64,000 nt of DNA from an uncultured Actinomycetota bacterium (GTDB lineage Bacteria > Actinomycetota > Humimicrobiia > Humimicrobiales > Humimicrobiaceae). The translations under genes and the position numbers were made by a program. The notes below the pieces were generated by a model that did no database searches, was not told the origin of the DNA, and saw only the letters and a list, made by a program, of their open reading frames with translations. Positions 20,499 to 49,155 of this stretch are shown here, piece after piece. Each line of letters starts with the position of its first letter. Position 1 is the stretch's first letter. The stretch lies in contig CAZODQ010000001.1 in assembly GCA_964578625.1 (NCBI GenBank), positions 23,401-87,400 of the forward strand, given 5' to 3'.

Positions 20499-22481
20499 AT
20501 GAAAGTTATATTAATAATACTTATAATTCTATTTCTAGCAATAACATCACTATACGGGATCACTATAATCAACAAAAATAAAAGTATTGACTACGAAGAC
20601 GAATATAGTCTAACAACAGAAGAAAAAAGTGAAGATAGCAAAACAACTTCTCCCGATTCAAAAGTAGAAACTATCGGTGACAATCAGGAAATTCTTAATA
20701 TTGATTTAGATAATATAGGAGCCGATGATGAAGAAAGCAATACTACAGAAGACAAACAGGAAGATTTAACCTCAGACGATGAAAAAACTCCGGAAACTCA
20801 ACAGAACGAGGGGGAGGAAGCTGAAGAAGAAGTTGAGGAAGTTGAAGAAGCCGAGGAAGAAGAATCAGAGGAAGAAGAAAAAATAGAGGATAATACCATC
20901 AGGATCTTCTTAGATGGAGATATGGAGAATGGTATATACCTGGGTGAAACAATATGTGACCAGGAATCAATAGAAGCATATGGTCTTTACGGAGAAGAAT
21001 TTAAAAATACGGGTTTTAAATTTACATGGGAAAATAATGATGTAAATTTCCTTCCAGGTTCAACCCATTATATTTATATATATTTCTATAGTACCGAATT
21101 AGGATGGGACCATATCAGAGAAGAAATAAATTTGCCGGGTGAAAAAGATTGTGAAAGGGACATAATAATCTTTATAGATAAACCACAGGAAAAAACCATT
21201 ACTGAAAGCCTTCAGTTAATTGATGGGTGGACTGTAGACTTGAGAAACGATGAAAGTCCGGGTATAAAAGAAGTAGAGATTTACTTAAACGGACCAAAGG
21301 ATTACGGCAAATCCATAGGCACAATACAGTATGGTATACCAAGATATGATGTAGTAGAATTTTTAAAAAACCAGAGCTATCTTAATAGTGGTTATCGGTT
21401 CGATGAACCAATTGATCTTGAACCCGGGTCCAAGCATACACTATTCATATATGCCTACAGTTCACAAGACAATTCATTCAATTATGAAAAAAGAGAAATT
21501 TACCTGTCAGGAATAAAAGAAGAAAAAGCAATAATTAAAGCTCAAATTAACCAGGAAAAACTCTCTCAAGATAATATCATCGAAGTTACCGGTTGGGCTA
21601 TTAATAAAAAAATTCTAGAGGATTACCTAAAAGAAAAACTAGAGCTTGAGAAGGAAACTACTGAAAGTGAAGATGGATATTCTATAAAAAAGGCAGTATT
21701 TACCTCTAATAGGGACGGTAATAAAAACATTTACAGTATAAATATTGACGGGACAGGAATCACCAGGTTGACCAGTTATTCTGGAAATGATTTTTATCCG
21801 GAGGCATCACAGGACGGACATAAAATTGCCTATGCTTCAGACATTGGAGGCGTATGGCAAATAATGGTCATGGATTGGGATGGGAAAAACAAAAAACAAA
21901 TTACCCATAATAGTTTCCGCTGTGGATATCCCAGCTGGTCTTTCGACGGCAAATATATATATTTTGAAGCTTATATTGACGGAGATTGGGAACTTTTCAG
22001 GATAAACAGCAATGGGACAGGCCAGAAAAGGCTGACCTTTGATTCTAATCACAACGACTGGCATCCAAACGGACATCCATTCAAATATAAAATTATCTAT
22101 GAATCAGGTGTTACCGGACATGAAAACATCTATGTAATGGATCATAATGGTTCAGGAATCAAAAATATATGTGATAGCGGTCCCAGAAGAAGAGTCCCAG
22201 ATGTATCAAACGATGGAAATAAAATAACTTATATGAGGTACTCCGGAGATAATAGTGAAATTTGGATTATGGATTACAGCGGACAAAACGAAACAAGGCT
22301 TACCTCTAATCCCGACTGGGATGGACATCCATCATTTTCCCCGGACGATAAATATATTATTTATGATGAGAAAAAAGGATCTAAAGAAGATTTGATTTTA
22401 ATAGATCTTGCCAGTGGAATAAAGACAAATATAACTAATTCTTCCAGTATTGATGAAGATCCAAGTTTTCTATACCGGTAG
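20499..22481 (+). CDS. Membrane-anchored surface protein: N-terminal TM, poly-Glu/Asp linker, two repeats of an ~85-aa domain, C-terminal TolB-like PD40 beta-propeller
   Basis: 660 aa. N-terminus VILIILIILFLAITSLYGI; acidic low-complexity run EEAEEEVEEVEEAEEEESEEEEK. The C-terminal ~270 aa carry repeated PD40-type blades (FTSNRDGNKNIYSINIDG, ASDIGGVWQIMVMDWDG, FDGKYIYFEA, SNDGNKITYMRYSG, SPDDKYIIYDE). Confidence 0.7.
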   Translation: MKVILIILIILFLAITSLYGITIINKNKSIDYEDEYSLTTEEKSEDSKTTSPDSKVETIGDNQEILNIDLDNIGADDEESNTTEDKQEDLTSDDEKTPETQQNEGEEAEEEVEEVEEAEEEESEEEEKIEDNTIRIFLDGDMENGIYLGETICDQESIEAYGLYGEEFKNTGFKFTWENNDVNFLPGSTHYIYIYFYSTELGWDHIREEINLPGEKDCERDIIIFIDKPQEKTITESLQLIDGWTVDLRNDESPGIKEVEIYLNGPKDYGKSIGTIQYGIPRYDVVEFLKNQSYLNSGYRFDEPIDLEPGSKHTLFIYAYSSQDNSFNYEKREIYLSGIKEEKAIIKAQINQEKLSQDNIIEVTGWAINKKILEDYLKEKLELEKETTESEDGYSIKKAVFTSNRDGNKNIYSINIDGTGITRLTSYSGNDFYPEASQDGHKIAYASDIGGVWQIMVMDWDGKNKKQITHNSFRCGYPSWSFDGKYIYFEAYIDGDWELFRINSNGTGQKRLTFDSNHNDWHPNGHPFKYKIIYESGVTGHENIYVMDHNGSGIKNICDSGPRRRVPDVSNDGNKITYMRYSGDNSEIWIMDYSGQNETRLTSNPDWDGHPSFSPDDKYIIYDEKKGSKEDLILIDLASGIKTNITNSSSIDEDPSFLYR

Positions 22482-22983
22482 TAGACGGCTTTTCCACTTG
22501 GCGTTTAGCTTCATGTTTAAACCTTTTGTATTTTACTGCAAATCTCAACCTAATAGATGAACCAATGGAAATTCCAAGCCATAAAGACCAAATAATATTA
22601 TTGGAAAAGAAATAATAAACAAGGTCTGAGACAGTTAAGTCTGTACCAAAGAACTTAACCGCTATCAGATTAACAGCACCTGTGCCGTTGAGTATTAAAG
22701 CAAGAGCTGGAATAAAACCCACTATTAGAAACACCTTGATATCAAAATAATTCCTTTTAGCTTTGGGTTTCATAGTAAGAATTATTAAAAGCCCGATCAT
22801 AAAACCAATAATAAAAACAATAAAATATCTCAGGAGACTCAAGTAACCAGCAGATATATTATAACCAGCAAAGGCATCCAATATATTATCAAAGTAGGCA
22901 AAGCCCGCATAGTAAAGAATTATGTTTATAAAACTGAATACCGTTAGAAAAACTCTCATTTTCTTCCAGCTGATAATATACAT
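22435..22983 (-). CDS. Small polytopic (about 4-TM) membrane protein of unknown family
   Basis: 182 aa. Paralog of 24939..25418 (shared MR[VI]FL..FSFIN...IIWSLWLGISIGSSIRL-type motifs). Its 3' end overlaps the 3' end of the convergent gene 20499..22481 by 47 nt. Confidence 0.5.
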   Translation of the reverse strand: MYIISWKKMRVFLTVFSFINIILYYAGFAYFDNILDAFAGYNISAGYLSLLRYFIVFIIGFMIGLLIILTMKPKAKRNYFDIKVFLIVGFIPALALILNGTGAVNLIAVKFFGTDLTVSDLVYYFFSNNIIWSLWLGISIGSSIRLRFAVKYKRFKHEAKRQVEKPSTTGIENLDLHQYWKN

Positions 22984-23158: not shown

Positions 23159-24937
23159 ATGAAAACAGTAACCATAATAACCATAATTTTATTTCTGACA
23201 GCATCAATTTTTCTTGGGATTGTAGTCTTCAAATATATTGGAACTAAAATATTTTCTGATACGGAGATTTCCGAAATAGAGCAAAATATTCCAGAACAGG
23301 ATATTCCGACAGTAGCTGAAGAAAATGAGGAGGAAGTTGAAAAGGAAGTTGAAATAGACACTGAAGATATAGCCGCAGTAGAAATATATCTCGATGGTAA
23401 CAGCGAAAACGGCATCTTTTTAGGAGAGGCATCATACGGAACTACCTCCGAAGAAGCTTCTATTATCTATGGTGAAGACTTTTCAGATTCCGGTTTTCTT
23501 CTTTCTTTAGATAATAAAGGTTATGTTTTTGAACCGGGTTCGATCCACTACCTTTATGTATACACTTCAATACCAAAATATGGGTGGGATTACATCCGTA
23601 AAAAGATTTCGATCCCAGGAGAAACAGACTACGATGATAGTATTCAATTCTCTATAGATGACCCATCACATAATACAATAATAAAAGGAGCCGATAAAGC
23701 CAATATACGTGTATCCGGCTGGTCAGTGGACCTTGATCATTTAGATTCTACCGGTATTGATAGAATAGAAGTATATTTAAACGGGCCAAGGGGCTTTGGA
23801 AAATCCGAAGGTCCTGTGGATTATGGAATTGAACGGTCGGATGTGGCCAATGCATTTCAAAACGCAAATTATACCAATTCGGGTTATTCCCTTTATTTCG
23901 ATGGGAGTCAACTTGAAGACGGGAGCGAAAATACCCTATATATTTATTACTATTCCACCTCTGGTACTTATTCTTTAGCTATGGTGGATTTTAAAATAGA
24001 AGGTGAGGAAAAAGAATCCAATGCTGTAATCTCAATAGAAGATTATGATTTTAATGATCAGATTATAGAAATAATTGGATGGGCTACAAATAAAGATTGG
24101 ATACTGGAAGGTAGACCCCCACGAAGCCTGGACGTAGAATATTCTACTAAAAAAATAGTCTTCACTTCCAATATGAATGGTAATGAAGATATATTCAGTA
24201 TGAATATAGATGGTTCTGAACTTACTCAATTAACAGATTATCCAGGAAAAGATAATTACCCTGCTGTTTCTCCAGATGGGGAAAAAATTGCATATACCTC
24301 GGACATTAACGGCACATGGCAGATCATGGTCATGAACTGGGATGGAACAGAAAAGGTACAGCTTACCCATAATCCCTGGAGAAGCGGATATCCAGCCTGG
24401 TCTTTTGATGGAAGATTTATCTACTTTGAAGCAGCCCCGGAGGGAGATTATGAAATATACAGAATAGACAGCGACGGAAGTAATATGAAACGGCTTACAT
24501 TCAATCCAAACATTGATGACTGGCATCCCTATGGTCATCCTTTCCAATATAAAGTCATTTACGAATCCGGAGCATCAAGAAACGAGGACCTTTACATAAT
24601 GGATTATGATGGTAAAAATATTAAAAGGATTTCTGATATAAATATGAGGAAAAGAGTCCCTGCAATTTCAGTTGATGGAAAATTAATTGTTTTTAGTGAT
24701 AATTCTTCTATCTATACTATGGACAGTAATGGAGAAAATATAAAAAAAATTACCGAAAACCTTGCGAATTGCAGACATCCCGATATCTCACCTGATAATA
24801 ATTATATAACTTTTGAGGGCGGTGCCGAGGGACAGGAAGATATATATATTGTTAATCTTAACGGTTCAAACCCTGTAAAGCTGACTAATTTTCCAGGGAC
24901 TGATTATGATCCCTCTTTTATGTATCAGACACCTTAA
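23159..24937 (+). CDS. Paralogous membrane-anchored TolB-like PD40 beta-propeller surface protein
   Basis: 592 aa. Same architecture as 20499..22481: TM (VTIITIILFLTASIFLGIVVF), short acidic stretch, two ~85-aa repeats (VEIYLDGNSENGIFLGE..., IEVYLNGPRGFGKSEG...), PD40 blades (FTSNMNGNEDIFSMNIDG, TSDINGTWQIMVMNWDG, FDGRFIYFEA, SPDNNYITFEG). Confidence 0.7.
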   Translation: MKTVTIITIILFLTASIFLGIVVFKYIGTKIFSDTEISEIEQNIPEQDIPTVAEENEEEVEKEVEIDTEDIAAVEIYLDGNSENGIFLGEASYGTTSEEASIIYGEDFSDSGFLLSLDNKGYVFEPGSIHYLYVYTSIPKYGWDYIRKKISIPGETDYDDSIQFSIDDPSHNTIIKGADKANIRVSGWSVDLDHLDSTGIDRIEVYLNGPRGFGKSEGPVDYGIERSDVANAFQNANYTNSGYSLYFDGSQLEDGSENTLYIYYYSTSGTYSLAMVDFKIEGEEKESNAVISIEDYDFNDQIIEIIGWATNKDWILEGRPPRSLDVEYSTKKIVFTSNMNGNEDIFSMNIDGSELTQLTDYPGKDNYPAVSPDGEKIAYTSDINGTWQIMVMNWDGTEKVQLTHNPWRSGYPAWSFDGRFIYFEAAPEGDYEIYRIDSDGSNMKRLTFNPNIDDWHPYGHPFQYKVIYESGASRNEDLYIMDYDGKNIKRISDINMRKRVPAISVDGKLIVFSDNSSIYTMDSNGENIKKITENLANCRHPDISPDNNYITFEGGAEGQEDIYIVNLNGSNPVKLTNFPGTDYDPSFMYQTP

Positions 24938-24938
24938 C

Positions 24939-25418
24939 TTACTTGGAATTTTCCTTTTCAGTTTTATCAATTGACATATGCCTGTATACTCTACCAGAAA
25001 AACTGAAGCGTACCGATGAACCTACGGCAAAACCAAACCATAATGACCAGATAGCCTGTCTTGAGAAAAGATAAAACACCATTTCGCTTAACTTTTCACT
25101 TGAGTTGAAAAATTTATTTATAATAAAACCGGTAATAGTACCCTCGGACAGTATAAGACAGATAAACGGAATAATTCCAATAATTATAAGGTTTTTAAAA
25201 CTAAAAAGACTTTTCTCTATATTTAACCGCATTATAAGCATTATACTTACACCCATACAAAATCCGACAATTAAAAGTGCTGTCAGTTTGATATAATTAG
25301 CCGCTGTCGGAGATAAATTCACTGCTCCCAATATTTCCAAAATCTTATCAAAAAAAGAATATATAAGAATATAAAAAATGGTATTAATAAAAGAAAATAT
25401 TATTAAAAAAATCCTCAC
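24939..25418 (-). CDS. Small polytopic membrane protein, paralog of 22435..22983
   Basis: 159 aa. Conserved segments with 22435..22983 (MRIFLIIFSFIN..., AIWSLWFGFAVGSSVRF). Lies 1 nt from the stop of the convergent propeller gene. Confidence 0.5.
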   Translation of the reverse strand: MRIFLIIFSFINTIFYILIYSFFDKILEILGAVNLSPTAANYIKLTALLIVGFCMGVSIMLIMRLNIEKSLFSFKNLIIIGIIPFICLILSEGTITGFIINKFFNSSEKLSEMVFYLFSRQAIWSLWFGFAVGSSVRFSFSGRVYRHMSIDKTEKENSK

Positions 25419-25488: not shown

Positions 25489-27309
25489 CTAAAGCCTCTG
25501 TCCAACACTGCCGAGATAATGAGAGACATAACTAAAAACCGTATGGGCAACAACTGAAGCTCCAGCCGGACTGTAATGCATTCCGTCAACAAGATACTCT
25601 CCCGGATTCTGTGACAGCGGAGTCATTACATCTATAACTACCACCCCATGTTTTGCAGCAATCTGTTTAATTATTTCGTTATATTTTGGATATCCTTCTT
25701 TACCAGACCGATATATAGGACCGATAAGATTAATAAATACCCTGGCACCCAGATTCTTTGCCTTAATGATCAAACCTTCAATATTGTGATCAAATCCCGA
25801 ATATCTGGGACCGACATCATTAGTTCCATAGGCAATTATGATTATATCAGGATGGTATACAGATACAGTACTATCAAATCTTTCATAGCCACCACCTGAC
25901 ATCTCGCCACCCTTTCCACTGGCAATGGTATTGTATTCTGCATATGGATAATTAGCCTCCAGGAGCCCGTCAAACGTTTGTACCCAGTTAGACATTTCTA
26001 TTAAAGAATCGCCCATCGCAACAATAGTCAGGTTAACATTTCCTTTGACATTAAGACTTTTAGACGGCAGCTCAATTTCTCCATTGCCGTCTTCAATTTT
26101 AAAATGAGTGGTAATCGTGCCCCCCGTATTGACCAGGTTATCATTTATCTTCATACTGAAAGTTATTTCTTTTTCCTCTCCCATACCCAGATCTTGTAAA
26201 TCCCATATAAGGCCCCTTATGTCATCACTCCATCTAATTCCTTCTGCAGTACCCGACCTGCTAATATAAGTAGCTTCAGCAGGTATGGGACAAATAACTC
26301 TATAATTTTCCTCTTTCTTATCACCAGTATTTCTAACCATAATTTTTACACCTATGGTTTCACCAGGCCAAAGTTCTCTGCCATTTGTATCATATATATA
26401 ATCTTCCGATGTACTTAAATCAGAAAAAAGACTTAACTCTTCCTCTACCGACTTTTCTATAACTGTTGATCCATATTTTAAAGTACCCTGATTAGTTATG
26501 AGTTCATCACCGTTTAAGTCATCTTTTACCTTGACTTCGAAGGAAAAAGTCCTGGGTTTATTTATTTCTATATTATTAACTTTCCATAATACATAATTAT
26601 CCTTATATTCACCTAACCCGGTGATAGAATTTTCAATTATATTCACATATTCCGATAGATCGCTTCTAATTTCTACATCAGAAGCATCCATATCACCGGT
26701 ATTTTCTACTGTCAGATTATATTGTATAACATCACCCAGCATAACAATGTCGCCGTTTTCATCAATAGCTTCTAATTTGAAATTATTTAGATTAGGACTG
26801 CTTTCAATCTTACTGACCAGATCCGCACCAATATCATCATTAAATGAATCTCTCCCCGCTCCGTATCTAAATTTCACTTTATCCAGTTCAATCAAAGTAC
26901 CATTGTCCAGCGGCTTATCCGCCTCCACTATGAAATTAATGCTGTCTCCTTCATTTCTTTTAACATTTCCAATTTCAAAATCCAGAGTTCTATCATCATT
27001 TGTTAAAGTACTGTTATGGTCCGATGATACAAAAAAAGTATTATCCGGTACCTCAAGTTCTATTACCAAATCCTCTATATTTCTGTTTCCTGTATTCTTA
27101 AAGTTTATTGTGTATGTTATTTCCTCACCGGGTTTTAAATATTCACCCTGATCACTGTATATAAAATTAGATTGTCTATCACCAAAAATTGGTTTGGCAA
27201 GATAAATTTTAAAATAATAAAAGACACCAAATGATATCACAATAAATATGACTATAAGATAAATCCATCTTCTATCACTTTTTATATAATTTAAAAATCT
27301 CTTAAACAT
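25489..27309 (-). CDS. Membrane-anchored protein with DUF11/CARDB-like repeats and C-terminal SGNH (GDSL) hydrolase domain
   Basis: 606 aa. N-terminal TM (WIYLIVIFIVISFGVFYYF). Repeats of the type GEEITYTINFKNTGNRNIEDLVIELEVPDNTFF and GDVIQYNLTVENTGDMDASDVEI. The C-terminal region has GDS-block (VAMGDSLIE), GTND block and a DGMHYS DxxH block of SGNH esterases. Confidence 0.65.
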   Translation of the reverse strand: MFKRFLNYIKSDRRWIYLIVIFIVISFGVFYYFKIYLAKPIFGDRQSNFIYSDQGEYLKPGEEITYTINFKNTGNRNIEDLVIELEVPDNTFFVSSDHNSTLTNDDRTLDFEIGNVKRNEGDSINFIVEADKPLDNGTLIELDKVKFRYGAGRDSFNDDIGADLVSKIESSPNLNNFKLEAIDENGDIVMLGDVIQYNLTVENTGDMDASDVEIRSDLSEYVNIIENSITGLGEYKDNYVLWKVNNIEINKPRTFSFEVKVKDDLNGDELITNQGTLKYGSTVIEKSVEEELSLFSDLSTSEDYIYDTNGRELWPGETIGVKIMVRNTGDKKEENYRVICPIPAEATYISRSGTAEGIRWSDDIRGLIWDLQDLGMGEEKEITFSMKINDNLVNTGGTITTHFKIEDGNGEIELPSKSLNVKGNVNLTIVAMGDSLIEMSNWVQTFDGLLEANYPYAEYNTIASGKGGEMSGGGYERFDSTVSVYHPDIIIIAYGTNDVGPRYSGFDHNIEGLIIKAKNLGARVFINLIGPIYRSGKEGYPKYNEIIKQIAAKHGVVVIDVMTPLSQNPGEYLVDGMHYSPAGASVVAHTVFSYVSHYLGSVGQRL

Positions 27310-27399
27310 CTATATTGTCTCAACATTTGTATTTATAAAAAAACAGCTTTATATTATATCAAAAATCTAATATCTAAATAAAGCCCTTTGCTTACAATC

Positions 27400-27780
27400 C
27401 TAATTCTTTATGTTCATTTCAATATCATCACAATCAATATAATTATCACGATAAGTTGCCCTGAACTTTATTAAAGAATTACCGGGAGTGCTGCCCTTAA
27501 GTTTCACAATTAGATTAATCTTACCGTTCCCTTTTATTACATATGAATCACTTACCCACATATATATACCATTACTCAAGCCGGGATACTGATTAATATA
27601 TCCATCAAGGCTTACTCCTTCAAATCCAATATTATCCGGGAGTTCTAATTCGAGAGAACTGATTTTAGCATCATACTCATTGGTGTTTCTTATAATATAT
27701 TCAACAGTAAATTCCTCTCCGATTTCCTTGGTATAATCGTCAACCATATATTCAATTTTGATACTCCTATCCAGATTTAA
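27400..27780. repeat. About 0.38-kb DNA-level repeat (copy 1) encoding the shared DUF11-like C-terminal domain
   Basis: Nucleotide similarity is visible between 27400-27780 and 29013-29395. For example, 27548-27600 cccacatatatataccattactcaagccgggatactgattaatatatccatcaagg matches 29166-29222 cccacatatacataccccggctcaagccaggatcctgatcaatatatccggaagg. Confidence 0.7.
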
Positions 27781-28992
27781 ATAATTAACATATTGATCGG
27801 GTGGAATATAGCTATTAAATTCTACTCTTTTTATGTTATTGAGATTAATCGTTCTCATATCTTCAATTCCGCCCCAGTATCTTACTGCACCCCTATAACC
27901 CGCTTCCGGAATTAAATGCCATTTTGAGGAAGAATTATTATCATAAGGCCATGCAAAAAATAGAACTTCATTTCCCAGGTGTGATTCTATATCCTCCTTT
28001 GATTGGGTGAGTTCATATAAAAACTCATCATCAGTAGCAAGGCCCAATCTTACATGATTTACTGTATGTGATAAAAACTCACATCCATACTCATACATCT
28101 CTTCGATTTCAGGCCATATAAGTATCGGCCTTATTACATCAGTTCTCTTATTAAAATAAGCATTTGTCTTTCTTTCAGCTTCCGTTTCCCCGATTGCTCC
28201 GGTGACCAGAAAAACAGTCATCTTATACCCATACTTTTTAAGAATGGGAAACCCATTGGTGTAAACATCCTGGAATCCATCATCAGAGGTTATGATCACC
28301 GGCCTTTCGGGCAGTGCTTTACCAAAGTCTATATAATTTAAAACATCAGTAAAGGTAATGGTTTCATATCCGTATTCTTTTAATACCTTACACAATCTAT
28401 CGAAATGGCTGGTATACAGTTCTATTGCAGCTCCAATATCATCCTCTATAGCATGTAATCCTATTATTGGAATAAAATTCCCTTCAAAATGCTTAACACC
28501 ATAAACCATTATGCCATAATCAGGACTTGTAAAAGAATCCACTTCGTCTGAAGATATTTCCAGCCTGCACCATGCCAGTATGTCTTCAGTTATCTTATCC
28601 GTTAAAGTCAGAGTGGTATTAAAAGTAATCCTCTCCCCCGCATCCAGAACATCAACATTCCAGCTGGTTTCTTTCCCGTTGGATATAAAGAAATTGTCGT
28701 AAGTAAGGTCGACTTTTACATTGTTTACCTTTATACCGCCGTTATTTAAAACAGTTACATTTACCTCTAATTTTTCACCGGGATATGTGTCACCGCCATT
28801 TATATCCACAAATTCTACAGTGGAACCGGTAAATGACGGAAATAACTCTTCGGCAATACTACTGCTATTATCCCTGCCGCTAATTCCGGCAAGTAAGGAA
28901 CAGCTGACAAGAATCACTAAAATAATTATTATAAAAACGGATAATATAAATATATTAATTCTTTTTTTAGGATTTTTCTTCAGAAACATCAT
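27400..28992 (-). CDS. Polysaccharide deacetylase (CE4/NodB) with N-terminal TM, CARDB-like domain and C-terminal DUF11-like domain
   Basis: 530 aa. CE4 motifs ITSDDGFQD (TFDDG-type) and HTVNH. The C-terminal ~120 aa (GEEFTVEYIIRNTNEYDAKISSLELELPDN...) are about 60% identical to the C-terminus of 29013..30902. Confidence 0.7.
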   Translation of the reverse strand: MMFLKKNPKKRINIFILSVFIIIILVILVSCSLLAGISGRDNSSSIAEELFPSFTGSTVEFVDINGGDTYPGEKLEVNVTVLNNGGIKVNNVKVDLTYDNFFISNGKETSWNVDVLDAGERITFNTTLTLTDKITEDILAWCRLEISSDEVDSFTSPDYGIMVYGVKHFEGNFIPIIGLHAIEDDIGAAIELYTSHFDRLCKVLKEYGYETITFTDVLNYIDFGKALPERPVIITSDDGFQDVYTNGFPILKKYGYKMTVFLVTGAIGETEAERKTNAYFNKRTDVIRPILIWPEIEEMYEYGCEFLSHTVNHVRLGLATDDEFLYELTQSKEDIESHLGNEVLFFAWPYDNNSSSKWHLIPEAGYRGAVRYWGGIEDMRTINLNNIKRVEFNSYIPPDQYVNYLNLDRSIKIEYMVDDYTKEIGEEFTVEYIIRNTNEYDAKISSLELELPDNIGFEGVSLDGYINQYPGLSNGIYMWVSDSYVIKGNGKINLIVKLKGSTPGNSLIKFRATYRDNYIDCDDIEMNIKN

Positions 28993-29012: not shown

Positions 29013-29395
29013 TTAATCTGTTATTTCCATTTCAATATCATCACAGTTAACATAAACCTCATTTGTAGTCAACCTAAACTTAATAGGTGACTTTCCCGGC
29101 TTGGTACCCCTAAGTTCTACAATTAAATTTATTTCATCTTCTCCCTCAATAACATATGAATCACTGACCCACATATACATACCCCGGCTCAAGCCAGGAT
29201 CCTGATCAATATATCCGGAAGGAATTGTTCCTATAAATTTAATATTATCCGGAAGCTCCAGTTCAAGCGAGCTGATTTTAATGCTTTTTTTATTCTTATT
29301 ACTGATTATATATTCAACGGTAAATTCCTCACCATATTTTCTACTGTAACTATCGCTGTAGTAATCTATTTCCACATTCACGACAGTTTCATTGA
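29013..29395. repeat. About 0.38-kb DNA-level repeat (copy 2) encoding the shared DUF11-like C-terminal domain
   Basis: See copy 1. The encoded peptides share GEEFTVEYII.N.N...KISSLELELPDNI.F....GYI.Q.PGLS.G.YMWVSDSYVI.G...INLIV.L.G..PG.S.IKFR.....Y..CDDIEM.I. Confidence 0.7.
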
Positions 29396-30902
29396 CCTTA
29401 TAAAGTTTTAATGTTTCATCGTATCTATCCCAGGTATAAGTTTTTCCTACCTGTTCGGCATCAAATATGGATAACAATGCATTATTATTGCCTACAAAAT
29501 ATACAGTAATGCCGTCATCCAGAGATTTAATCATATCCTCAACCGTATATTCAGGAACCTTATGAGAAATATACTCTATATTTTTTTCACCATATTCATA
29601 TCGATCTACAAACATTCCTATATTGGTTGATTTCGCCAGAACATATACTTTGGAATTACTCTCCATGTTACTGAAAGCTTCGTCCCAGAATTTGTAAACA
29701 TCCGGGGGCTCCGAAAGATCAAGTTTATTATAATTTTTCATAATAAAGTATAATGGCAGAAAAGTAAAAAATAAGATCAATATGACCATTACAAAATATT
29801 TTAAAAAGTTACTAATTTTCGGGATTTTACTGTTCTTAATCAATTTATCAAAAAGAAATATTGACCTATTTAGTATAAATAACATTCCAAATGCTATATA
29901 AAAAGAAAAAACAATCATGGAATTAAGCAGATAATTACGGAGCGCATGACCTGCGTAAAGAGGTGGTATAATAAAATTTAAAATTACCAGCAAAAATGTA
30001 CAAAGGCTAAACTTTAAATTTTTTCTAATTAAAAAGATAAATCCTATCAACGCTATAATTAGAAGTACGATACCATAACTCTGGTAAACCATATTAAGAT
30101 AATCTTTCAATACCTTGAGGATCAATGAAAGATTTTTATCACCAAAACTTCCTCCATGAAGTTCACCTGTTACTTCCCTCCCCATTATATAATAAAAAAA
30201 TCTCAAAGGAGTGGTTACTCCTCCATAACCTTGAAGGGACCTTATAGGAAGATATAAATATGATAGAAGAGGTAGAATAAAATATAATATACTGAGAAGG
30301 ATTGCCTTAATGCTTTTAAAAATCCGTGGATTTACAATAATTACATATAAAACAATGGCCGGAACCAGAAAAAAAGCAAGAGGATGATTGGTCAAACTTA
30401 AACCGAGACAGAAAGAGAAAAAATATAAATATTTTCTTGTTTTATTTTCTTTATAAATAATTGCCGAAAAAAACAACAAAACTATAAAAAAACTGTTTAA
30501 TGTATCAAATTCCAGCCTATTTGCCACTTCCCAGAAAGGCACAATAAAAGCAAATATCATAGAGCTTATAAAGCTTATAAACTCATTTTTTACCAGTTTA
30601 TTTATTGAAAGAAATAAAAATAATAGGGTAAGCGCACCAAATACTGCAGAAAAAAGATTAAGCCTGTAAGCAAGATCAGCAATAGGTAAAAAAGTGAAAA
30701 GTTTCTCCAATAAGGAGAAGGTCGGATACCCGGTGGGCACCATTAAACTCATTTCAGTAACCTGAAGTGCATACCAGCTGGTATCTCCCCCGATTAATTT
30801 ATGCTCCAATGTGAGTATATAAATAACTAGTGGTATAAGAAAAGAGAAAACCGCAAATATGACTTTTTTCTTACCAATAAGGAATTCTTTGATTTTTTGC
30901 AT
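29013..30902 (-). CDS. GT-C superfamily integral membrane glycosyltransferase (ArnT/PMT-like or DUF2723-like) with C-terminal extracytoplasmic DUF11-like domain
   Basis: 629 aa. About 11 hydrophobic segments in the first ~400 aa, with an early Asp-containing loop (IGGDTSWY) as in GT-C enzymes that use polyprenyl-phosphate sugar donors. The C-terminal soluble domain is shared with the CE4 protein. Confidence 0.5.
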   Translation of the reverse strand: MQKIKEFLIGKKKVIFAVFSFLIPLVIYILTLEHKLIGGDTSWYALQVTEMSLMVPTGYPTFSLLEKLFTFLPIADLAYRLNLFSAVFGALTLLFLFLSINKLVKNEFISFISSMIFAFIVPFWEVANRLEFDTLNSFFIVLLFFSAIIYKENKTRKYLYFFSFCLGLSLTNHPLAFFLVPAIVLYVIIVNPRIFKSIKAILLSILYFILPLLSYLYLPIRSLQGYGGVTTPLRFFYYIMGREVTGELHGGSFGDKNLSLILKVLKDYLNMVYQSYGIVLLIIALIGFIFLIRKNLKFSLCTFLLVILNFIIPPLYAGHALRNYLLNSMIVFSFYIAFGMLFILNRSIFLFDKLIKNSKIPKISNFLKYFVMVILILFFTFLPLYFIMKNYNKLDLSEPPDVYKFWDEAFSNMESNSKVYVLAKSTNIGMFVDRYEYGEKNIEYISHKVPEYTVEDMIKSLDDGITVYFVGNNNALLSIFDAEQVGKTYTWDRYDETLKLYKVNETVVNVEIDYYSDSYSRKYGEEFTVEYIISNKNKKSIKISSLELELPDNIKFIGTIPSGYIDQDPGLSRGMYMWVSDSYVIEGEDEINLIVELRGTKPGKSPIKFRLTTNEVYVNCDDIEMEITD

Positions 30903-30939: not shown

Positions 30940-31278
30940 CTATAAATTAAATATTATGACTCCTGCAATAACCAAAATATTTCCTAAAACCCTTAATCTG
31001 TCAACATCTTCTTTAAGAACTCTCCATGAAAACAACATAACAAAAAAGTAGCTTAATGCAGTAAAAGAATAAAAATTTGAAAAATCAATCACTCTCATAG
31101 TGATTATGGAAAGTATTGGAACCAGTAAAAATAAAAATATGCTTATCAATAGATATTTATTCTTAAAATTATAAATTAAAGGCTTTTTAAAATCTAACCT
31201 GATAGCTCCCATTTTAAGAATAACCTGAGCCAGAGCGACCAGTAACTGGATAGTGACTGCTAAAAAAATATAAAGCAT
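30940..31278 (-). CDS. Small 4-TM DMT/SMR-like membrane protein (ArnE/ArnF-like)
   Basis: 112 aa. ...WRVLKEDVDRLRVLGNILVIAGVIIF. Adjacent to a second paralog and to GT-C and GT2 genes. Confidence 0.5.
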   Translation of the reverse strand: MLYIFLAVTIQLLVALAQVILKMGAIRLDFKKPLIYNFKNKYLLISIFLFLLVPILSIITMRVIDFSNFYSFTALSYFFVMLFSWRVLKEDVDRLRVLGNILVIAGVIIFNL

Positions 31279-31281
31279 ATA

Positions 31282-31656
31282 TCAGACTCCTTCCAGCTTT
31301 TTACTGGACATGGTTATAATAATAACTCCGGACACTATTACAGCGGAACCTATTATTTTCATTAAAGTGATGTCTTCCCCAAATAAAATCTTCCCCAAAA
31401 ACAATGAAAAAAAGTAATTTAAACTTAAGAACGGATATATAAAAGACAGCTGAAATTTTCTATGCAGAATAAGCCAGAATGTAAATTTCAAACCGTAGGT
31501 CAGTATAAGAACAGATAACCAAAGGATAAAAATACTTGAGATATTAAGATTTATACCAATATATTTACCCGCTATTATACTTAATAAACTAATGCTGATA
31601 TTAAGGATGATTATAAGGATATAAAAAAATTTTTTACTGGTGTCTCTAAATTTCAT
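31282..31656 (-). CDS. Small 4-TM DMT/SMR-like membrane protein (ArnE/ArnF-like)
   Basis: 124 aa. ...ILFGEDITLMKIIGSAVIVSGVIIITMS. Forms a pair with 30940..31278, like ArnE/ArnF heterodimers. Confidence 0.5.
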   Translation of the reverse strand: MKFRDTSKKFFYILIIILNISISLLSIIAGKYIGINLNISSIFILWLSVLILTYGLKFTFWLILHRKFQLSFIYPFLSLNYFFSLFLGKILFGEDITLMKIIGSAVIVSGVIIITMSSKKLEGV

Positions 31657-31901: not shown

Positions 31902-32858
31902 ATGATAAAGAAATTATTAGTGGCAATTCCTGCCTACAATGAAGAAGAAAAAATAGGTGAAGTAATACAAAACACCCCAAAAAAAATTGAAGGTGTATCT
32001 AAAGTCCATATACTGGTTATTGATGATGGCAGCACAGATAAAACTGTAAAAATTGCCAGGGGTTTACGTGCAGAAGTTATAAAAAATTATCACAATATGG
32101 GATACGGAGTAGCGTTTGGCAAAGCCCTGCAATATGCAGTGGATCATGACTTTGATTTAATGGTCAGTATTGACGGAGATGCTCAATTTGATCCAAAAGA
32201 TATTCCCAAACTTATTAGTCCGATTATAAAAGATGAAGCCGATCTGGTAACTGCATCAAGATTTATCAATAAAAGCTATTACCCTAAAATGCCTTTATCC
32301 AAATTCTGGGGGAATAAGTTAATGTCAATTTTAATCAGTAAACTGATCGGTAAAAAATTTTATGACGTCTCATGCGGATTCAGAGCATACTCACAAAAAA
32401 CTCTGCTTTCGCTAAATCTTCATGGAAAATTTACTTTTTCTCAAGAAACCTTTATTGACCTGTCATTCAAAGGGCTGAAGATCCTGGAAATCCCTATAAA
32501 GGTCAGATACTTTCCTTCACGAGTTTCAAAAATTTCCTCTAATCTTTTCACATATGGAATAAATGCTCTTAAAATTATTATTGAGACTTACCGTGACTAT
32601 AAGCCGTTTACTTTTTTTTCCTATATTGCCCTCTTCTTTTTTATAATAAGTATCTTTTTCGGATCAATTTTACTGTATACATATATTTCAATAGGATCAT
32701 TCCATCCAAATGTCTGGTCAGGATTTGTGGGAGGTACTTTCCTTTTTATCTCCATTATTTTTTTTATAGTCGGCATATCAGCAGATATAATCAAAAGAAT
32801 AAGAGTTAACCAGGAAGAAATTTTATATCTCTTAAAAAGAAATTCTCAAAGAAAATAA
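31902..32858 (+). CDS. GT2 polyprenyl-phosphate sugar synthase (ArnC/DPM1/GtrB-like) with C-terminal TM helices
   Basis: 318 aa. LVAIPAYNEEEKI...VIDDGSTDKT...DGDAQFD and two C-terminal TM helices (FFSYIALFFFIISIFFGSILLY; FLFISIIFFIVGISADI), the ArnC/GtrB architecture. Confidence 0.75.
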   Translation: MIKKLLVAIPAYNEEEKIGEVIQNTPKKIEGVSKVHILVIDDGSTDKTVKIARGLRAEVIKNYHNMGYGVAFGKALQYAVDHDFDLMVSIDGDAQFDPKDIPKLISPIIKDEADLVTASRFINKSYYPKMPLSKFWGNKLMSILISKLIGKKFYDVSCGFRAYSQKTLLSLNLHGKFTFSQETFIDLSFKGLKILEIPIKVRYFPSRVSKISSNLFTYGINALKIIIETYRDYKPFTFFSYIALFFFIISIFFGSILLYTYISIGSFHPNVWSGFVGGTFLFISIIFFIVGISADIIKRIRVNQEEILYLLKRNSQRK

Positions 32859-33155
32859 TTTAATAATACAACTTATACTTAAGATAATTTAAGTCAAATA
32901 AAATAAAAAATAGTATAATATTAAAAATGAAAAGAATTTTGTTTATAAAAATACTATATTACCTTTTTTATACATCTGTCTTTCTACTTGCATTAATCGT
33001 TTTCTTAGAAATTACAAAATTTAATTTCTATAATAATTACCTGAAAGATTTTTTTAATAAAATTTTTAGTATCTTAAATTTCTAATATTATTCTTATCCT
33101 GTTTTCTTAAATAAAGACATTTACAAATTTATTTTTAATGAAATAATACCAGTTT

Positions 33156-34553
33156 ATGAAGATATTTCTTTTATTTACTGAGATAAATCAAAAATTCGGA
33201 CCTTTATACTATCAGCATGGGCTGGCTTCTATTTCAGCCTTACTTAAAAAAAATGGAGTCCGATCCATCTCTCTAATACACTTTACCAGGGAACCCAATC
33301 TTAAAAAATGGGAGTCGCATATTAAGGAACAAAAACCAGACTTAATAGGTATTTATTCGACAACAGAGCAGTTTCACTTCATAAAGGGACTTGTCGGTAA
33401 AGTCCCCCGGGGCATATTTACAATTTGCGGAGGACCACACCCCACCTCTTATCCAATGTGCATTGAAGATATTCCACGATTGGATGCAATTTGTATAGGA
33501 GAGGGAGAGTATCCCGTATTAGAACTGGTAAATTCTTTAAAAGAAGGCAGAGATTATAGCAAGATAAAGAATCTATGGGTCAGAAAAGATGGGAATATTA
33601 TAAGGAATAAAACAAGACCGTTTATAACTGATTTAAATGAACTCCCATTTGAAGACCGTGAACTTTTCAATCACCAGAAATCGATTGACAAGTATGGTTT
33701 TGCACAGGTGCGGGTATTAACAACCAGAGGCTGCCCATACCAATGTACTTATTGTGCAAACAGGCAGATAAGTAAATCTCAGCCCGGAAGTTATGTCCGC
33801 TTCCGTTCTGCTGTACATATCATGGATGAGTTAAATTACCTTAATAGAAAGTATAAGTTCAAGGAAATCTTCTTTGATGACGATATTTTTATGATGAATA
33901 GAACAATCCGCAAGAAATTTTGTGAAAGATATCCAATGGAAATTGGCAAACCTTTCGTTTTCAGCGGATATATTAATATTTGCAATGAAGAAATGCTAAA
34001 AGAACTGAGAGAAGCAGGCGGGCGTAGAATCGATTTTGGTGTAGAATCCGGTAATGAGGAACTGCGGCAAAAAATCTTAAAGAGGAATATGACAGACATA
34101 CAAATTTTAGAAACTGCAAACATGGCCAGGAGAATCGGATTTCAGATTAAAACTCTGAACATGGTCGGGCTTCCCGGAGAAACCATTGAGAAACATCTGG
34201 ACACTGTAAATCTGAACAATGAAATAAAACCGGACGTAGCAAGCATATTCATATTCTATCCTTATCCCGGTACAGAATTATATGAATATTGTATCAAAAA
34301 GGGATATTTTAATCCTGATGAACCTCTGCCCAAAGGGTATATTTCACGGAGAAATTCATTACTTGATCTTCCTGATTTTTCTAGAAATGATATCGCGAAA
34401 TGTTTCCAGAGATTTGGGTTCCGTGTTTTTAAGAAGATTTCTGTAATGAAAGCTATTGAATATGCTGTCATATATTCTAAACATGGTGAACTTATTATGA
34501 GGATTACTTCAAAGCTTCGGAATATAATCATTAAGTTACTGCCAGGATTTTAA
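33156..34553 (+). CDS. B12-binding domain radical SAM protein (class B radical SAM)
   Basis: 465 aa. N-terminal cobalamin-binding-like Rossmann region (IGIYSTTEQF...ICGGPHPTSYP...DAICIGEGE) followed by the radical SAM cluster motif CPYQCTYC. Confidence 0.75.
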   Translation: MKIFLLFTEINQKFGPLYYQHGLASISALLKKNGVRSISLIHFTREPNLKKWESHIKEQKPDLIGIYSTTEQFHFIKGLVGKVPRGIFTICGGPHPTSYPMCIEDIPRLDAICIGEGEYPVLELVNSLKEGRDYSKIKNLWVRKDGNIIRNKTRPFITDLNELPFEDRELFNHQKSIDKYGFAQVRVLTTRGCPYQCTYCANRQISKSQPGSYVRFRSAVHIMDELNYLNRKYKFKEIFFDDDIFMMNRTIRKKFCERYPMEIGKPFVFSGYINICNEEMLKELREAGGRRIDFGVESGNEELRQKILKRNMTDIQILETANMARRIGFQIKTLNMVGLPGETIEKHLDTVNLNNEIKPDVASIFIFYPYPGTELYEYCIKKGYFNPDEPLPKGYISRRNSLLDLPDFSRNDIAKCFQRFGFRVFKKISVMKAIEYAVIYSKHGELIMRITSKLRNIIIKLLPGF

Positions 34554-34602: not shown

Positions 34603-35643
34603 TCAAATATTTTGATTTTTATGATCATTTGATATTTCCGGTTTTATTCTTTTAGACCTGCCTTCAAAATAGGGTCTTGCAGTATATATAATTCCCCCCA
34701 GTACTCCCATTAGAACTATCATAAACAATATCAGAAGAGAACATAAAGCAGCTTTCTCGTTAGTAACCCCCATAGCTACCAGAATAAAGACCAGAGAATT
34801 TTCCCTCAATCCGATACCGCCAATGGAAATGGGGATCATGGCTATTATTGCCACTATCGGCACAATAAAAATAAATGCGGTCAAGCTTAGGTTTATTCCT
34901 AGGGCTCTGGCTGCTAAAAACCAGTTAAGTATAACTGAAAACTGAAGAAGAAAACTGAATACCAGCACTACGACAAGAGCTTCCTTATACTTTTTAAAAC
35001 TCAACAGGGTCTTATAAACATTAGACAGCTTTTCATTTATTTTACGCATAAATTTAAACTTATTGGAAATCTTACCCAATCCGAAAAAAGAAGGATTGAT
35101 AATAAGGAAAGCTATGATCACAGTTATTACGAAAAATATGACAATTGGAATTATTACCGACCGGTGGCCGATAGCCGTAAATCCTAAAAATAAAGCTATA
35201 ACCGCATAAATAGCTGCGCTTACCACTCCGGAAAATCTTTCAACTATGATCACTGAAACAGATTTTCCCATAGGAATGTCAGCTTTTTTTGAAGCATCAT
35301 AACTCCTGAATACATCTCCTCCTATACTGGTAGGTAAAAAATTATTAAAAAAAGAGCCAATAAGAACTGTAACACTCAATGAAGCAGTACTTAATCTTAC
35401 ATCCTGCGTATTTAAAAGAACCTTCCATCTCACAGCAGTTATATAGGTCCCCAGAGCATGAGTGGAGAGCGAAAGTAAAAGTAAGACTTTATTTGATGAT
35501 TTCAAAATCTCAATTATACTGGAGAAATCTTTCATTTGTGTCTTAACCAGAAAAGCAATAAGGGAAGCACTGATTATGACTCTGGCTAAAAGAAGTATTA
35601 TCTTCTTATTTTTTATGTAAAAAGAGACGATCCTATTTTTCAT
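34603..35643 (-). CDS. Flippase-like polytopic membrane protein (LPG_synthase_TM / PF03706-like)
   Basis: 346 aa, about 8 TM. Central NFLPTSIGGDVFRSY motif characteristic of this family. Paralogs at 41009..42025 and 50496..51581. Confidence 0.55.
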   Translation of the reverse strand: MKNRIVSFYIKNKKIILLLARVIISASLIAFLVKTQMKDFSSIIEILKSSNKVLLLLSLSTHALGTYITAVRWKVLLNTQDVRLSTASLSVTVLIGSFFNNFLPTSIGGDVFRSYDASKKADIPMGKSVSVIIVERFSGVVSAAIYAVIALFLGFTAIGHRSVIIPIVIFFVITVIIAFLIINPSFFGLGKISNKFKFMRKINEKLSNVYKTLLSFKKYKEALVVVLVFSFLLQFSVILNWFLAARALGINLSLTAFIFIVPIVAIIAMIPISIGGIGLRENSLVFILVAMGVTNEKAALCSLLILFMIVLMGVLGGIIYTARPYFEGRSKRIKPEISNDHKNQNI

Positions 35644-35666
35644 TTTTAATCGAATCAGCTGTTTAA

Positions 35667-36410: not shown

Positions 36411-36536
36411 CTCCTTTTCCGATAATAAAGAATAAGCTCTAAAAAATTAAATAAAACACTTCTTTCCAGGACGAGTAAAACTGCAATCGGTTTAATAAAT
36501 TAAAGCTGCCTTCTTCTTTAGCTGAAATATCTTTTC

Positions 36537-37535: not shown

Positions 37536-37548
37536 TATAAGTTCATAT

Positions 37549-43476: not shown

Positions 43477-43478
43477 CA

Positions 43479-44468: not shown

Positions 44469-44630
44469 AAAATAATTTTACATGTTTTTCCGGCAGAAAT
44501 CTTTCCTATTAATACTAAATGTTATAAAATATCGGAAACGATTTCGTGAGAATTTTTAATAGTTTGAAAAATTACTTTATCATTTAAACTGGTTAACTGC
44601 TATTAAATTCTTTAAGGAAAGGAAGAAAAA

Positions 44631-45614: not shown

Positions 45615-45687
45615 AAATAGATAACCAATATTCAAATTTTTATATCAGTAAGTAAAATTTATAAAATAATATTCAGGAATTAATATT

Positions 45688-49148: not shown

Positions 49149-49155
49149 TTTTTCC

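Follow-up and report, generated by a model that had tools for sequence, protein, structure and literature searches.

Lipid-carrier decoration of envelope glycans follows the same logic in the GacI/J/K/L system, which provides the N-acetylglucosamine (GlcNAc) side chain of the group A carbohydrate, and in the PpgS/Rv3632/Rv3779 system, which places galactosamine (GalN) on mycobacterial arabinogalactan: a family 2 glycosyltransferase (GT2) acts as synthase, a flippase follows, and a C-type glycosyltransferase (GT-C) works on the outside. GacJ and Rv3632, the helpers of the GlcNAc-P-undecaprenol synthase GacI and of the N-acetylgalactosamine (GalNAc)-P-polyprenol synthase PpgS, belong to the DUF2304 family (bioRxiv 10.1101/180810). 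The mycobacterial GalN route also needs deacetylation "by as yet unidentified factors" (PMC9671496), and in the literature collection searched, no later identification of this GalNAc deacetylase was retrieved. On the deacetylase side, PplD of Streptococcus pyogenes (PDB 6DQ3) is a membrane-tethered protein with an extracellular catalytic domain that de-N-acetylates the GlcNAc linking the group A rhamnopolysaccharide to peptidoglycan (PMC8807736). Here, we analyze two neighboring genes, for a stalked SGNH esterase and a carbohydrate esterase family 4 (CE4) de-N-acetylase, in a 64,000-nucleotide stretch of DNA from an uncultured Actinomycetota bacterium (contig CAZODQ010000001.1, positions 23,401 to 87,400; hereafter the window, in whose coordinates all features are given).

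We favor, with a rough probability of 0.55, the reading that the products of both genes work outside the cytoplasm and tailor the cell-wall glycan of the organism itself, downstream of a lipid-carrier decoration route. The first-pass annotation of the window had proposed a de-O/N-acetylation module on the surface polymer, and this is still the best reading of the locus, given two intact enzymes, their conserved pairing, and a position behind a GT-C and a flippase-like pair in an envelope-glycan locus. By analogy, the locus would work like a lipid-carrier decoration system (Gtr, GacIJKL, PpgS/Rv3632/Rv3779, or Arn) supplemented with a PplD-type deacetylase. Taken singly, both enzymes are ordinary representatives of large families and already carry generic annotation in public records; new here are the operon-level coupling to the GT-C, a rare module common to the GT-C and the CE4 protein, and the placement of an enzyme on a CLIPPER stalk. 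As an envelope-tailoring module, the locus is well founded but rather ordinary, its one unusual trait being the shared domain. Both open reading frames (ORFs) occur on the minus strand where the first-pass annotation had placed them, and their parts, together with the adjacent GT-C, are as follows.

25489..27309, minus strand: SGNH esterase gene, 606 aa; signal anchor, three CLIPPER/DUF11 repeats, and C-terminal SGNH domain
27202..27273, minus strand: signal-anchor helix of the SGNH protein, approximately aa 13-36, from a hydropathy scan and the AlphaFold2 (AF2) helix
26047..27165, minus strand: stalk of three CLIPPER/DUF11 repeats, aa 49-168, 178-292, and 302-421
25516..26037, minus strand: SGNH catalytic domain, aa 425-598, with S435, G468, N497, D575, and H578
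27400..28992, minus strand: CE4 de-N-acetylase gene, 530 aa; lipoprotein signal, CARDB-like domain, CE4 barrel, and C-terminal beta-sandwich
28900..28992, minus strand: signal peptide with lipobox L28-V29-S30-C31, from the sequence and the conservation of Cys31
28504..28821, minus strand: CARDB-like beta-sandwich of the CE4 protein, aa 58-163 (PF07705), its strands predicted at a local confidence (pLDDT) above 90
27778..28482, minus strand: CE4 catalytic barrel, aa 171-405, with H180, D237, D238, H309, H313, W348-P-Y, and R389
27403..27765, minus strand: C-terminal beta-sandwich module of the CE4 protein, aa 410-530, with the motif YMWVSDSY
29013..30902, minus strand: TMEM260-like/PMT_2 GT-C, 629 aa, immediately upstream of the CE4 gene with a 20-nt gap

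Window ORFs of at least 112 aa were scanned, and Pfam and NCBIfam matches were judged against gathering scores and curated equivalog cut-offs, respectively. Residue conservation was read from 108 full-length SGNH and 100 full-length CE4 homologues, and structural evidence comes from AF2 models and Foldseek, complemented for the CE4 relatives by phmmer and profile searches of the PDB. The Pfam confirmation called for by the first-pass annotation was obtained for both proteins: PF01522 (Polysacc_deac_1) matched residues 226-368 of the 530-aa protein with 81.3 bits (E = 8e-23), and the 606-aa protein matched PF13472 (Lipase_GDSL_2) over residues 431-584 with 63.6 bits (E = 4e-17) and PF00657 (Lipase_GDSL) with 51 bits. 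All Pfam matches of the two proteins exceed the gathering scores and lie far beyond chance. Likewise, the motifs that had been named (GDS, GTND, and DxxH in the SGNH domain; a DD-G motif and HTVNH in the CE4 domain) are all in place, and the loss of catalytic residues that might have spoken against the prediction was not found in either homologue set, in which both catalytic sets are kept (the lowest counts are 99/100 for H313 and 106/108 for G468).

The CE4 protein starts with a basic segment (K5, K6, K9, K10, and R11) and a hydrophobic stretch at residues 12-30, which leads into the lipobox. Cys31 occurs in 99 of the 100 homologues, and at position -1, 78 of them have G, S, or A and 17 have N. 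On the strength of the lipobox and this conservation, the protein is more likely a lipoprotein than a protein with a plain transmembrane (TM) anchor. The single N-terminal TM segment or signal anchor previously assigned to both proteins was thus confirmed insofar as each has one hydrophobic segment following Lys/Arg residues, but the anchor of the CE4 protein needs to be reassigned. The same is true of the beta-sandwich repeats attributed to both: three DUF11 repeats are present on the SGNH protein, but the CE4 protein has one CARDB-like domain (PF07705 at residues 67-131; 25.6 bits against a cut-off of 22.7) and a separate C-terminal sandwich. The AF2 model of the CE4 protein has a mean pLDDT of 87.6, a predicted TM-score (pTM) of 0.77, and a low-confidence linker at residues 30-48; by these values, the three domains pack in a defined way.

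Within the catalytic barrel, motif 1 (MT1) reads T235-S-D237-D238-G; its T235-S-D237-D238 part, with the predicted catalytic and metal-binding Asp residues, is present in 100/100 homologues and aligns to the TFDD of PplD and PgaB. Motif 2 (MT2; H309-T-V-N-H313), with two predicted metal-binding His residues (H309 in 100/100 and H313 in 99/100), aligns to the HTVNH of PplD. H180, again invariant (100/100), takes the place of the catalytic His N-terminal to MT1 and is aligned with the His in the "YHAI" of PplD and the "SWHNV" of PgaB. Motif 3 (MT3) reads A-W-P-Y-D and lacks Arg, with W348-P-Y replacing the canonical Arg motif, and R389, which is invariant and located on the last strand of the barrel, may be the counterpart of PplD R302, a residue before which the alignments end. 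The best solved relative is 6DQ3 (phmmer E = 1e-11; profile E = 5e-19; Foldseek E = 5e-15, target TM-score 0.86), followed by PgaB, BpsB, Aggregatibacter PgaB, and IcaB. Foldseek retrieved distorted beta/alpha barrels with TM-scores of 0.86 (6dq3), 0.73-0.76 (3vus), 0.74 (4u10), and 0.76 (4wcj), and a Bacillus anthracis peptidoglycan deacetylase (6go1) was also among the structural matches. Membership in the named families was rejected for PgaB (72 versus 322 bits) and IcaB (44.5 versus 248 bits) on the NCBIfam models, and for ArnD, of which no model matched at E <= 0.01.

A catalytic His ahead of the DD pair, an MT3 without Arg, the absence of motif 4 (MT4), and an Arg from elsewhere that holds the catalytic Asp are the hallmarks of the subgroup formed by PplD, PgaB, and IcaB, which removes the ordinary N-acetyl group of GlcNAc (PMC8807736). 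By sequence and structure comparison, the CE4 protein is a member of this subgroup of extracytoplasmic GlcNAc de-N-acetylases, though not of its named families. The likeness to PplD extends to H180 (equivalent to H105, and to H55 of PgaB), D237/D238 (D167/D168), H309/H313 (H223/H227), the predicted membrane tether with an extracellular catalytic domain, the Arg-less MT3, the missing MT4, and also to the setting, since PplD acts on a wall polysaccharide of the Wzm/Wzt (ABC transporter-dependent) type. However, the two proteins are only ~23% identical, and the protein described here has a lipobox in place of the TM helix, an additional CARDB-like domain, and a C-terminal sandwich shared with the GT-C, and is encoded within a glycan decoration operon. 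PgaB, IcaB, and BpsB, which de-N-acetylate poly-N-acetylglucosamine (PNAG), belong to the same permuted CE4 subgroup, and PgaB is likewise a lipoprotein; these enzymes are partial de-N-acetylases of a secreted GlcNAc polymer. In contrast to their systems, this locus has no PgaC/IcaA synthase, and the protein has other accessory domains and no counterpart of the glycoside hydrolase-like domain at the C terminus of PgaB.

The SGNH protein likewise begins with basic residues (K3, R4, K10, R13, and R14) before a single hydrophobic helix, so that, by the positive-inside rule, it is predicted to be N-in/C-out with the remainder outside the cell. PF01345 (DUF11, now CLIPPER) matched it in three stretches with 93.8 bits against 24.6 (E = 1e-26), as did the NCBIfam DUF11-type repeat TIGR01451 (70 versus 24 bits, three stretches). 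In its AF2 model, the stalk segments are all-beta and residues 425-596 alternate between strand and helix, as in the three-layer alpha/beta/alpha SGNH fold. The mean pLDDT of 88.6, taken together with a pTM of 0.52, is consistent with well-folded beads on a flexible string. All catalytic blocks are conserved: block I (G433-D434-S435-L436) is invariant (108/108), block II G468 is found in 106/108, and G495 and N497 of block III (G495-T-N497-D498) as well as D575 and H578 of block V (D575-G-M-H578) are each found in 108/108. S435 would be the nucleophile, G468 and N497 would form the oxyanion hole, and D575 and H578 would supply the acid and base of the triad. We retrieved 142 homologues, the best 120 of which are 42-100% identical, nearly all with equal length and the same set of Pfam domains. 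In addition, four Actinomycetota loci from metagenome-assembled genomes (L052-L055) encode proteins whose match is confined to the SGNH catalytic domain, at 46-48% identity and without the CLIPPER stalk; they have no CE4, GT-C, or acetyltransferase neighbors, so the domain also occurs in another context.

Foldseek matched the stalk to integrin legs and to the C123 stalks of streptococcal antigen I/II, and the tip to acetyl xylan esterase 7ddy (target TM-score 0.75-0.78; root mean square deviation 2.1-2.9 Å). Since the full-length model mostly retrieved such integrin-leg and adhesin stalks, a sequence profile was built for the catalytic domain alone, and with it only hydrolases were returned from the PDB: the lysophospholipase L1-like 9otv (E = 4e-13), 1yzf, TesA (4jgg), 3hp4, 7ddy, Axe2 (3w7v), and Escherichia coli TAP. 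PatB, OatA, AlgX, and DltD did not appear at E <= 0.01 in this search. By sequence comparison, the domain is closest to small TesA-like and acetyl xylan-type esterases, and it is probably a hydrolase rather than a transferase. The small SGNH esterases (9otv, 1yzf, 4jgg, AlAXEase 7ddy, and Axe2 3w7v) have the same minimal fold of ~180 aa with all four blocks but are free and soluble, whereas here the domain tips a membrane-anchored stalk of three CLIPPER repeats and its gene is located in a glycan biosynthesis locus. Tandem PF01345 sandwiches also serve as spacers between a membrane anchor and a functional tip in fibrillar adhesins (PDB 9IFR), although some DUF11 domains have no intramolecular Lys-Asn isopeptide bond with its catalytic Asp (PMC12617251); the stalk described here differs in having only three repeats and an enzyme, not an adhesin, at its tip.

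The C-terminal module of the CE4 protein also occurs on a glycosyltransferase. The gene immediately upstream encodes a GT-C supported by PF11028 (82 versus 24.2 bits) and PMT_2 (31 versus 26.1 bits), with multiple hydrophobic segments across residues 7-391 according to a hydropathy scan. It is the only GT-C verified in the window, where the first-pass annotation had mentioned several; the neighborhood with such an enzyme, but not the plural, was correct. The last ~120 aa of this GT-C (29016..29378) and the last 120 residues of the CE4 protein are 61% identical (E = 4e-43), and the corresponding pairs in two other genomes are 55% and 45% identical, with [YF]MWVSDxY present in all six copies from the three genomes. 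Recent gene conversion as the cause of this resemblance was rejected, because orthologous modules (67-68% identity) are closer than the paralogues within a genome (55-62% in this comparison); this pattern instead indicates that the duplication is old and has been kept under constraint. When 1.84 billion cluster representatives were searched exhaustively with HMMER, only 43 matched, with the module C-terminal in the top-ranked ones and internal only in the weakest (E > 1e-10), which are long multirepeat proteins. Of 10 representatives scanned, 7 are TMEM260-like GT-Cs or CE4 proteins, and the other 3 (334-484 aa) have no Pfam match. The module also bears a weak resemblance to the SGNH protein, namely, to its first DUF11 repeat (30% across 111 aa; E = 1e-3). 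The C-terminal domains of GT-Cs are extracytoplasmic, as established for ArnT, PMT, and TMEM260, and the module therefore also supports an outside location of the CE4 protein. We infer from its presence on two adjacent enzymes, and from its rarity, that the GT-C and the CE4 protein meet the same ligand or each other.

Further genes of the locus on which the proposed route relies are given below.

30940..31278 and 31282..31656, minus strand: two half-size EamA proteins (112 and 124 aa; PF00892), ArnE/ArnF-like candidate flippase
31902..32858, plus strand, divergent: GT2 with C-terminal TM segments, 318 aa (PF00535), candidate polyprenyl-phosphate sugar synthase
34603..35643, minus strand: LPG_synthase_TM flippase-like protein, following the acetyltransferase gene in another operon
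35667..36410, minus strand: left-handed beta-helix (LbH; hexapeptide) acetyltransferase, WcaF/WbbJ/LacA-like but below cut-off, in that other operon

The genes EamA, EamA, GT-C, CE4, and SGNH form a same-strand run with gaps of 3, 37, 20, and 90 nt. To assess its conservation, one genome per GTDB species was scanned, which yielded 45 loci (related loci are referred to by L numbers). Of these, 25 were assessable, with 3 kb or more of upstream sequence and 50% or higher identity in the catalytic domain. The CE4 gene is in the flank of the SGNH gene in 24/25 and directly upstream on the same strand in 22/25; the GT-C is in the flank in 23/25, and the LbH acetyltransferase within 10 kb in 19/25, often convergent. 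The order GT2 / ArnE ArnF GT-C CE4 SGNH recurs down to ~45-50% protein identity, and the CE4-SGNH pairing is not accidental. Variants of the order speak to the sugar. In L008, L036, and L038, it is CE4, a GT2 of 228-235 aa, DUF2304, and SGNH, whereas in L006/L007/L046 the CE4, GT2, and DUF2304 genes make up one unit beside those for the GT-C and SGNH. The GT2 of this variant reaches 209 bits on the PpgS model (cut-off 370), and the GT2 at 31902..32858 is the nearest relative in the window of the one in L008 (35% identity). Indirect as it is, the occurrence of a PpgS-like GT2 together with DUF2304, a pair of the GacI/GacJ and PpgS/Rv3632 type, gives the strongest indication that the route delivers an N-acetylhexosamine (HexNAc), the substrate class of the CE4 subgroup. 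In the window, the best NCBIfam matches of the GT2 at 31902..32858 are all polyprenyl-phosphate sugar synthases (AglJ, 120 bits; the dolichyl-P hexose transferase DPhHxTase, 86; PpgS, 68; ArnC, 61) and fall below the cut-offs, and the sole NCBIfam matches of the EamA pair are ArnE (38 versus 92 bits) and ArnF (34 and 25 versus 99 bits).

In the route that we propose, the GT2 would load a sugar, most likely a HexNAc, onto polyprenyl phosphate; the ArnE/F-like pair would flip the polyprenyl-phosphate sugar across the membrane; and the GT-C would transfer the sugar to an acceptor outside, probably the Wzm/Wzt-exported polysaccharide of the same island. These three steps are proposed because of family-level similarity and gene order. 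The metal-dependent CE4 enzyme would then act on the HexNAc, be it still on the lipid donor or already transferred, and take off its N-acetyl group by the Zn/His mechanism known from PplD and IcaB, so that a sugar with a free, cationic amine results; a short linker would keep it near the membrane, and the shared module would bring it and the GT-C to the same ligand or to each other. Further from the membrane, on its three-domain stalk, the SGNH domain would hydrolyze O-acyl, probably O-acetyl, esters on the mature polymer, for which the WcaF/WbbJ-like LbH transferase of the neighboring operon is a plausible source of O-acetyl groups. The CE4 and SGNH steps are proposed on the basis of intact catalytic machinery, subgroup membership, and conserved linkage. 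Topology, the identities of sugar and acceptor, and the order of the steps are deduced from these same indications. A more specific version, tentative and rather doubtful as a whole, would make the CE4 protein the dedicated deacetylase of a lipid-carrier amino-sugar route, coupled through the module to the GT-C and acting on flipped polyprenyl-P-HexNAc or on freshly transferred HexNAc, that is, the enzyme type of GalN deacetylation on mycobacterial arabinogalactan. If this holds, a glycosyltransferase and the enzyme that edits its product would be brought together by a new targeting or docking domain, the shared module.

Comparison with the described systems sets limits to the analogy. The mycobacterial GalN route is the closest conceptual match within the phylum, with the difference that here the deacetylase gene sits in the operon. 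The DUF2304 helper of the GacI/J/K/L and PpgS/Rv3632 systems recurs in relatives of this locus, but the window GT2 is only weakly PpgS-like (68 bits, against 209 in the relatives), the GT-C is TMEM260/PMT_2-like where those systems have Rv3779 and GacL, and the flippase candidates are ArnE/F-like, not Wzx-like as GacK. The Arn pathway of lipid A aminoarabinose (ArnC, ArnD, ArnE/F, and ArnT) has the same parts, a GT2 acting on undecaprenyl phosphate, a CE4 family deacylase, a half-size EamA pair, and a GT-C, and it too takes an N-acyl group off a lipid-linked amino sugar. However, ArnD is a deformylase of the cytoplasmic face, whereas the CE4 protein carries an export signal, and the host phylum is of the Gram-positive type, without lipid A. 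An Arn system was rejected on these grounds, together with the missed equivalog cut-offs and the lack of ArnA and ArnB equivalents among the window ORFs scanned.

Several observations weigh against the favored reading. The substrates and activities of both enzymes, which come from an uncultured organism, are predictions. Neither the GT2 nor the ArnE/F-like proteins reach any NCBIfam equivalog cut-off, so the assignment of the sugar is tentative; no DUF2304/GacJ-like partner was found in the window, and no aminotransferase was found among the window ORFs scanned. Scans for promoter and terminator consensus sequences between 24.5 and 33.2 kb gave counts equal to those of shuffled controls, and the operon boundaries consequently rest on strand and spacing. 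Among the related loci, L021 has the SGNH gene, the GT-C, and the PpgS-like pair but no CE4 gene within 10 kb, and L047 is also without CE4. Finally, transferases also exist among SGNH domains, and peptidoglycan is a conceivable target of the CE4 enzyme.

These last two points lead to the alternatives that involve the cell's own polymers. For the CE4 protein, action on peptidoglycan or a PNAG-like exopolysaccharide, independent of the GT-C route and serving lysozyme resistance or biofilm maturation as with PgdA, PgaB, and IcaB, is compatible with the fold and the intact metal triad, with the NCBIfam matches to PgaB and IcaB (far below cut-off), and with 6go1 among the structural matches. We nevertheless consider it unlikely, since no PgaC/IcaA-type synthase is found in the window, whose GT2s match that model weakly, and since the near-universal linkage to the GT-C and the module shared with it argue for a common target. 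In addition, the motifs of canonical peptidoglycan deacetylases (PgdA type) are not permuted, and PgdA is no more than a distant relative of PplD (PMC8807736). For the SGNH protein, the corresponding alternative is an extracytoplasmic O-acyltransferase: the LbH enzyme would acetylate a lipid-linked intermediate, the LPG_synthase_TM protein would move it out, and the SGNH domain would pass the acyl group on to the polymer, in a relay like those of PatA/PatB, OatA, or DltB/DltD but built from different membrane parts. Membrane-anchored extracytoplasmic SGNH domains are transferases in PatB, OatA, AlgX/AlgJ, and DltD, and the neighborhood fits, with the LbH and flippase-like genes adjacent in every related locus that has both, directly beside and convergent with the SGNH gene in at least nine loci (including L021, L022, L033, L035, L040, L042, L043, and L049), and within 10 kb in the 19 loci counted above. 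Yet this convergent orientation means that the genes are not cotranscribed, no MBOAT/AT3 acyltransferase is present among the window ORFs scanned, the full hydrolase set (Ser, block II Gly, block III Asn, and Asp-x-x-His) is kept, and the profile search yielded hydrolases but none of the known transferases, which makes the relay improbable. The LbH enzyme also figured in the first-pass annotation, as an immediate neighbor and as one half of a programmed acetylation/deacetylation cycle. It is in fact 6.7 kb away, with seven genes between, and the cycle as proposed is not supported by the CE4 subgroup, which removes the ordinary N-acetyl of GlcNAc, not an acetyl group added by a hexapeptide transferase such as the LbH enzyme of another operon. 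An acetylation cycle with the hexapeptide acetyltransferase is no more than plausible; the LbH gene is linked to the SGNH gene by conserved neighborhood only. The outcomes named in the first-pass annotation (lysozyme resistance, phage receptor masking, and S-layer anchoring) are likewise possible by analogy only.

Two further explanations would take the enzymes away from the wall polysaccharide. The GT-C might be a protein O-glycosyltransferase like eukaryotic TMEM260, with the CE4 and SGNH proteins editing or carrying protein-linked glycans on their Ig-like modules. The PF11028 match (82 bits) is TMEM260-like, TMEM260 mannosylates beta-sandwich IPT domains (PMC10214176), and DUF11-like beta-sandwiches occur on all three consecutive proteins. 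Because this is pure analogy with the eukaryotic enzyme, and because the island encodes a complete polysaccharide pathway that would supply a glycan acceptor, it appears very unlikely. Least probable is that both proteins are surface esterases for feeding on acetylated environmental polysaccharides such as acetyl xylan or chitin (CE3/CE4 type). The CE4 family does include acetyl xylan esterases and chitin deacetylases, acetyl xylan esterases (7ddy and Axe2, 3w7v) rank best among the structural matches to the SGNH domain, and homologues carry the JGI label "peptidoglycan/xylan/chitin deacetylase." Against such a role, there is no glycoside hydrolase, sugar ABC importer, or regulator nearby, and the whole 54 kb is biosynthetic; the position behind the flippase-like pair and the GT-C is kept across species; and the CE4 domain is of the PplD/PgaB type, not the xylan esterase type, with a C-terminal module in common with a biosynthetic GT-C.

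Tailoring of the organism's own wall glycan, which we prefer over these explanations, would matter in the first place for surface charge, which depends on the free-amine sugars and the pattern of O-acetyl groups that wall polysaccharides carry. Where such modifications are known (PplD, PgdA, and mycobacterial GalN), they also influence how susceptible cells are to cationic antimicrobials and lysozyme, how phages adsorb, and how the immune system recognizes the cells. As a compact conserved set in which the deacetylase is encoded with synthase, flippase, and GT-C, the locus offers a candidate enzyme type for the deacetylation step of the actinobacterial GalN pathway, and its rare beta-sandwich module may couple a GT-C to its editing enzyme. 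It also provides a first handle on the envelope chemistry of an uncultured class: the homologues, all from metagenome-assembled genomes, are named Actinomycetota bacterium, Candidatus Humimicrobiaceae, Candidatus Hydromicrobium, and Candidatus Humimicrobium oleiphilum UBA1414, i.e., they derive from the class Candidatus Humimicrobiia, on whose envelope a literature search returned nothing.

The window (G+C content of ~33%) contains a trp operon at 2.7-8.9 kb, followed by the glycan island of ~54 kb; no tRNA genes or Rfam elements were found within it. Downstream of the SGNH gene lies a 159-aa membrane protein (24939..25418), which was rejected as a part of the module. In relatives it travels with a TolB-like propeller gene and stays with it even across the CE4 gene, and a paralogue is located beside the second propeller gene of the window. 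The two propeller loci (20499..22983 and 23159..25418) are paralogous convergent pairs of a TolB/PD40 beta-propeller with an N-terminal TM segment (660 and 592 aa) and a multi-TM protein of 159-182 aa without a Pfam match that flanks or overlaps it tail to tail, and this pairing recurs in L002, L004, L006, and L008. On the other side, just past the GT2 gene, a 52-aa hydrophobic micro-ORF (32927..33082, plus strand; no Pfam family) is 65% identical to a 52-aa ORF that follows the SGNH gene in L005, L007, L008, and L009, so this element is conserved while its position shifts.

The operon with the LbH gene (34603..39493, minus strand) is a second lipid-sugar operon, which encodes a short-chain dehydrogenase/reductase (SDR) epimerase/dehydratase, an ArnC-like GT2 (250 bits on the ArnC model, below cut-off), a radical SAM/SPASM enzyme, the LbH acetyltransferase, and the LPG_synthase_TM flippase-like protein. 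A radical SAM/SPASM enzyme is unusual in a sugar-carrier operon, and it is kept in all relatives examined. Three paralogous stand-alone LPG_synthase_TM proteins, similar to the flippase domain of MprF, are encoded at 34603..35643, 41009..42025, and 50496..51581, each by glycosyltransferase genes, and may be lipid-linked sugar flippases. The third is followed by two consecutive genes (48435..50472, minus strand) for proteins of 438 and 237 aa without Pfam matches, a trio kept in L006 and L009. A B12-binding radical SAM protein (33156..34553, plus strand) has HpnJ as its best, subthreshold NCBIfam match, and an SDR protein (44631..45614, plus strand) best matches HpnA, a hopanoid-associated sugar epimerase; both similarities are probably class-level only.

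The remainder of the island concerns the polymer itself. The segment 47556..63650 encodes RmlD, a true equivalog (295 versus 224 bits), GT2-GT4 fusions (835 and 788 aa), Wzm, Wzt with a Wzt_C carbohydrate-binding domain, and a coiled-coil methyltransferase (62433..63650) that resembles a WbdD-type chain terminator; this is the parts list of an ABC transporter-dependent, end-capped polysaccharide. In addition, a UDP-sugar dehydrogenase, two SDR epimerases, and an asparagine synthase-type amidotransferase are encoded at 42157..47553 (plus strand), which suggests an amidated uronic acid in the glycan.

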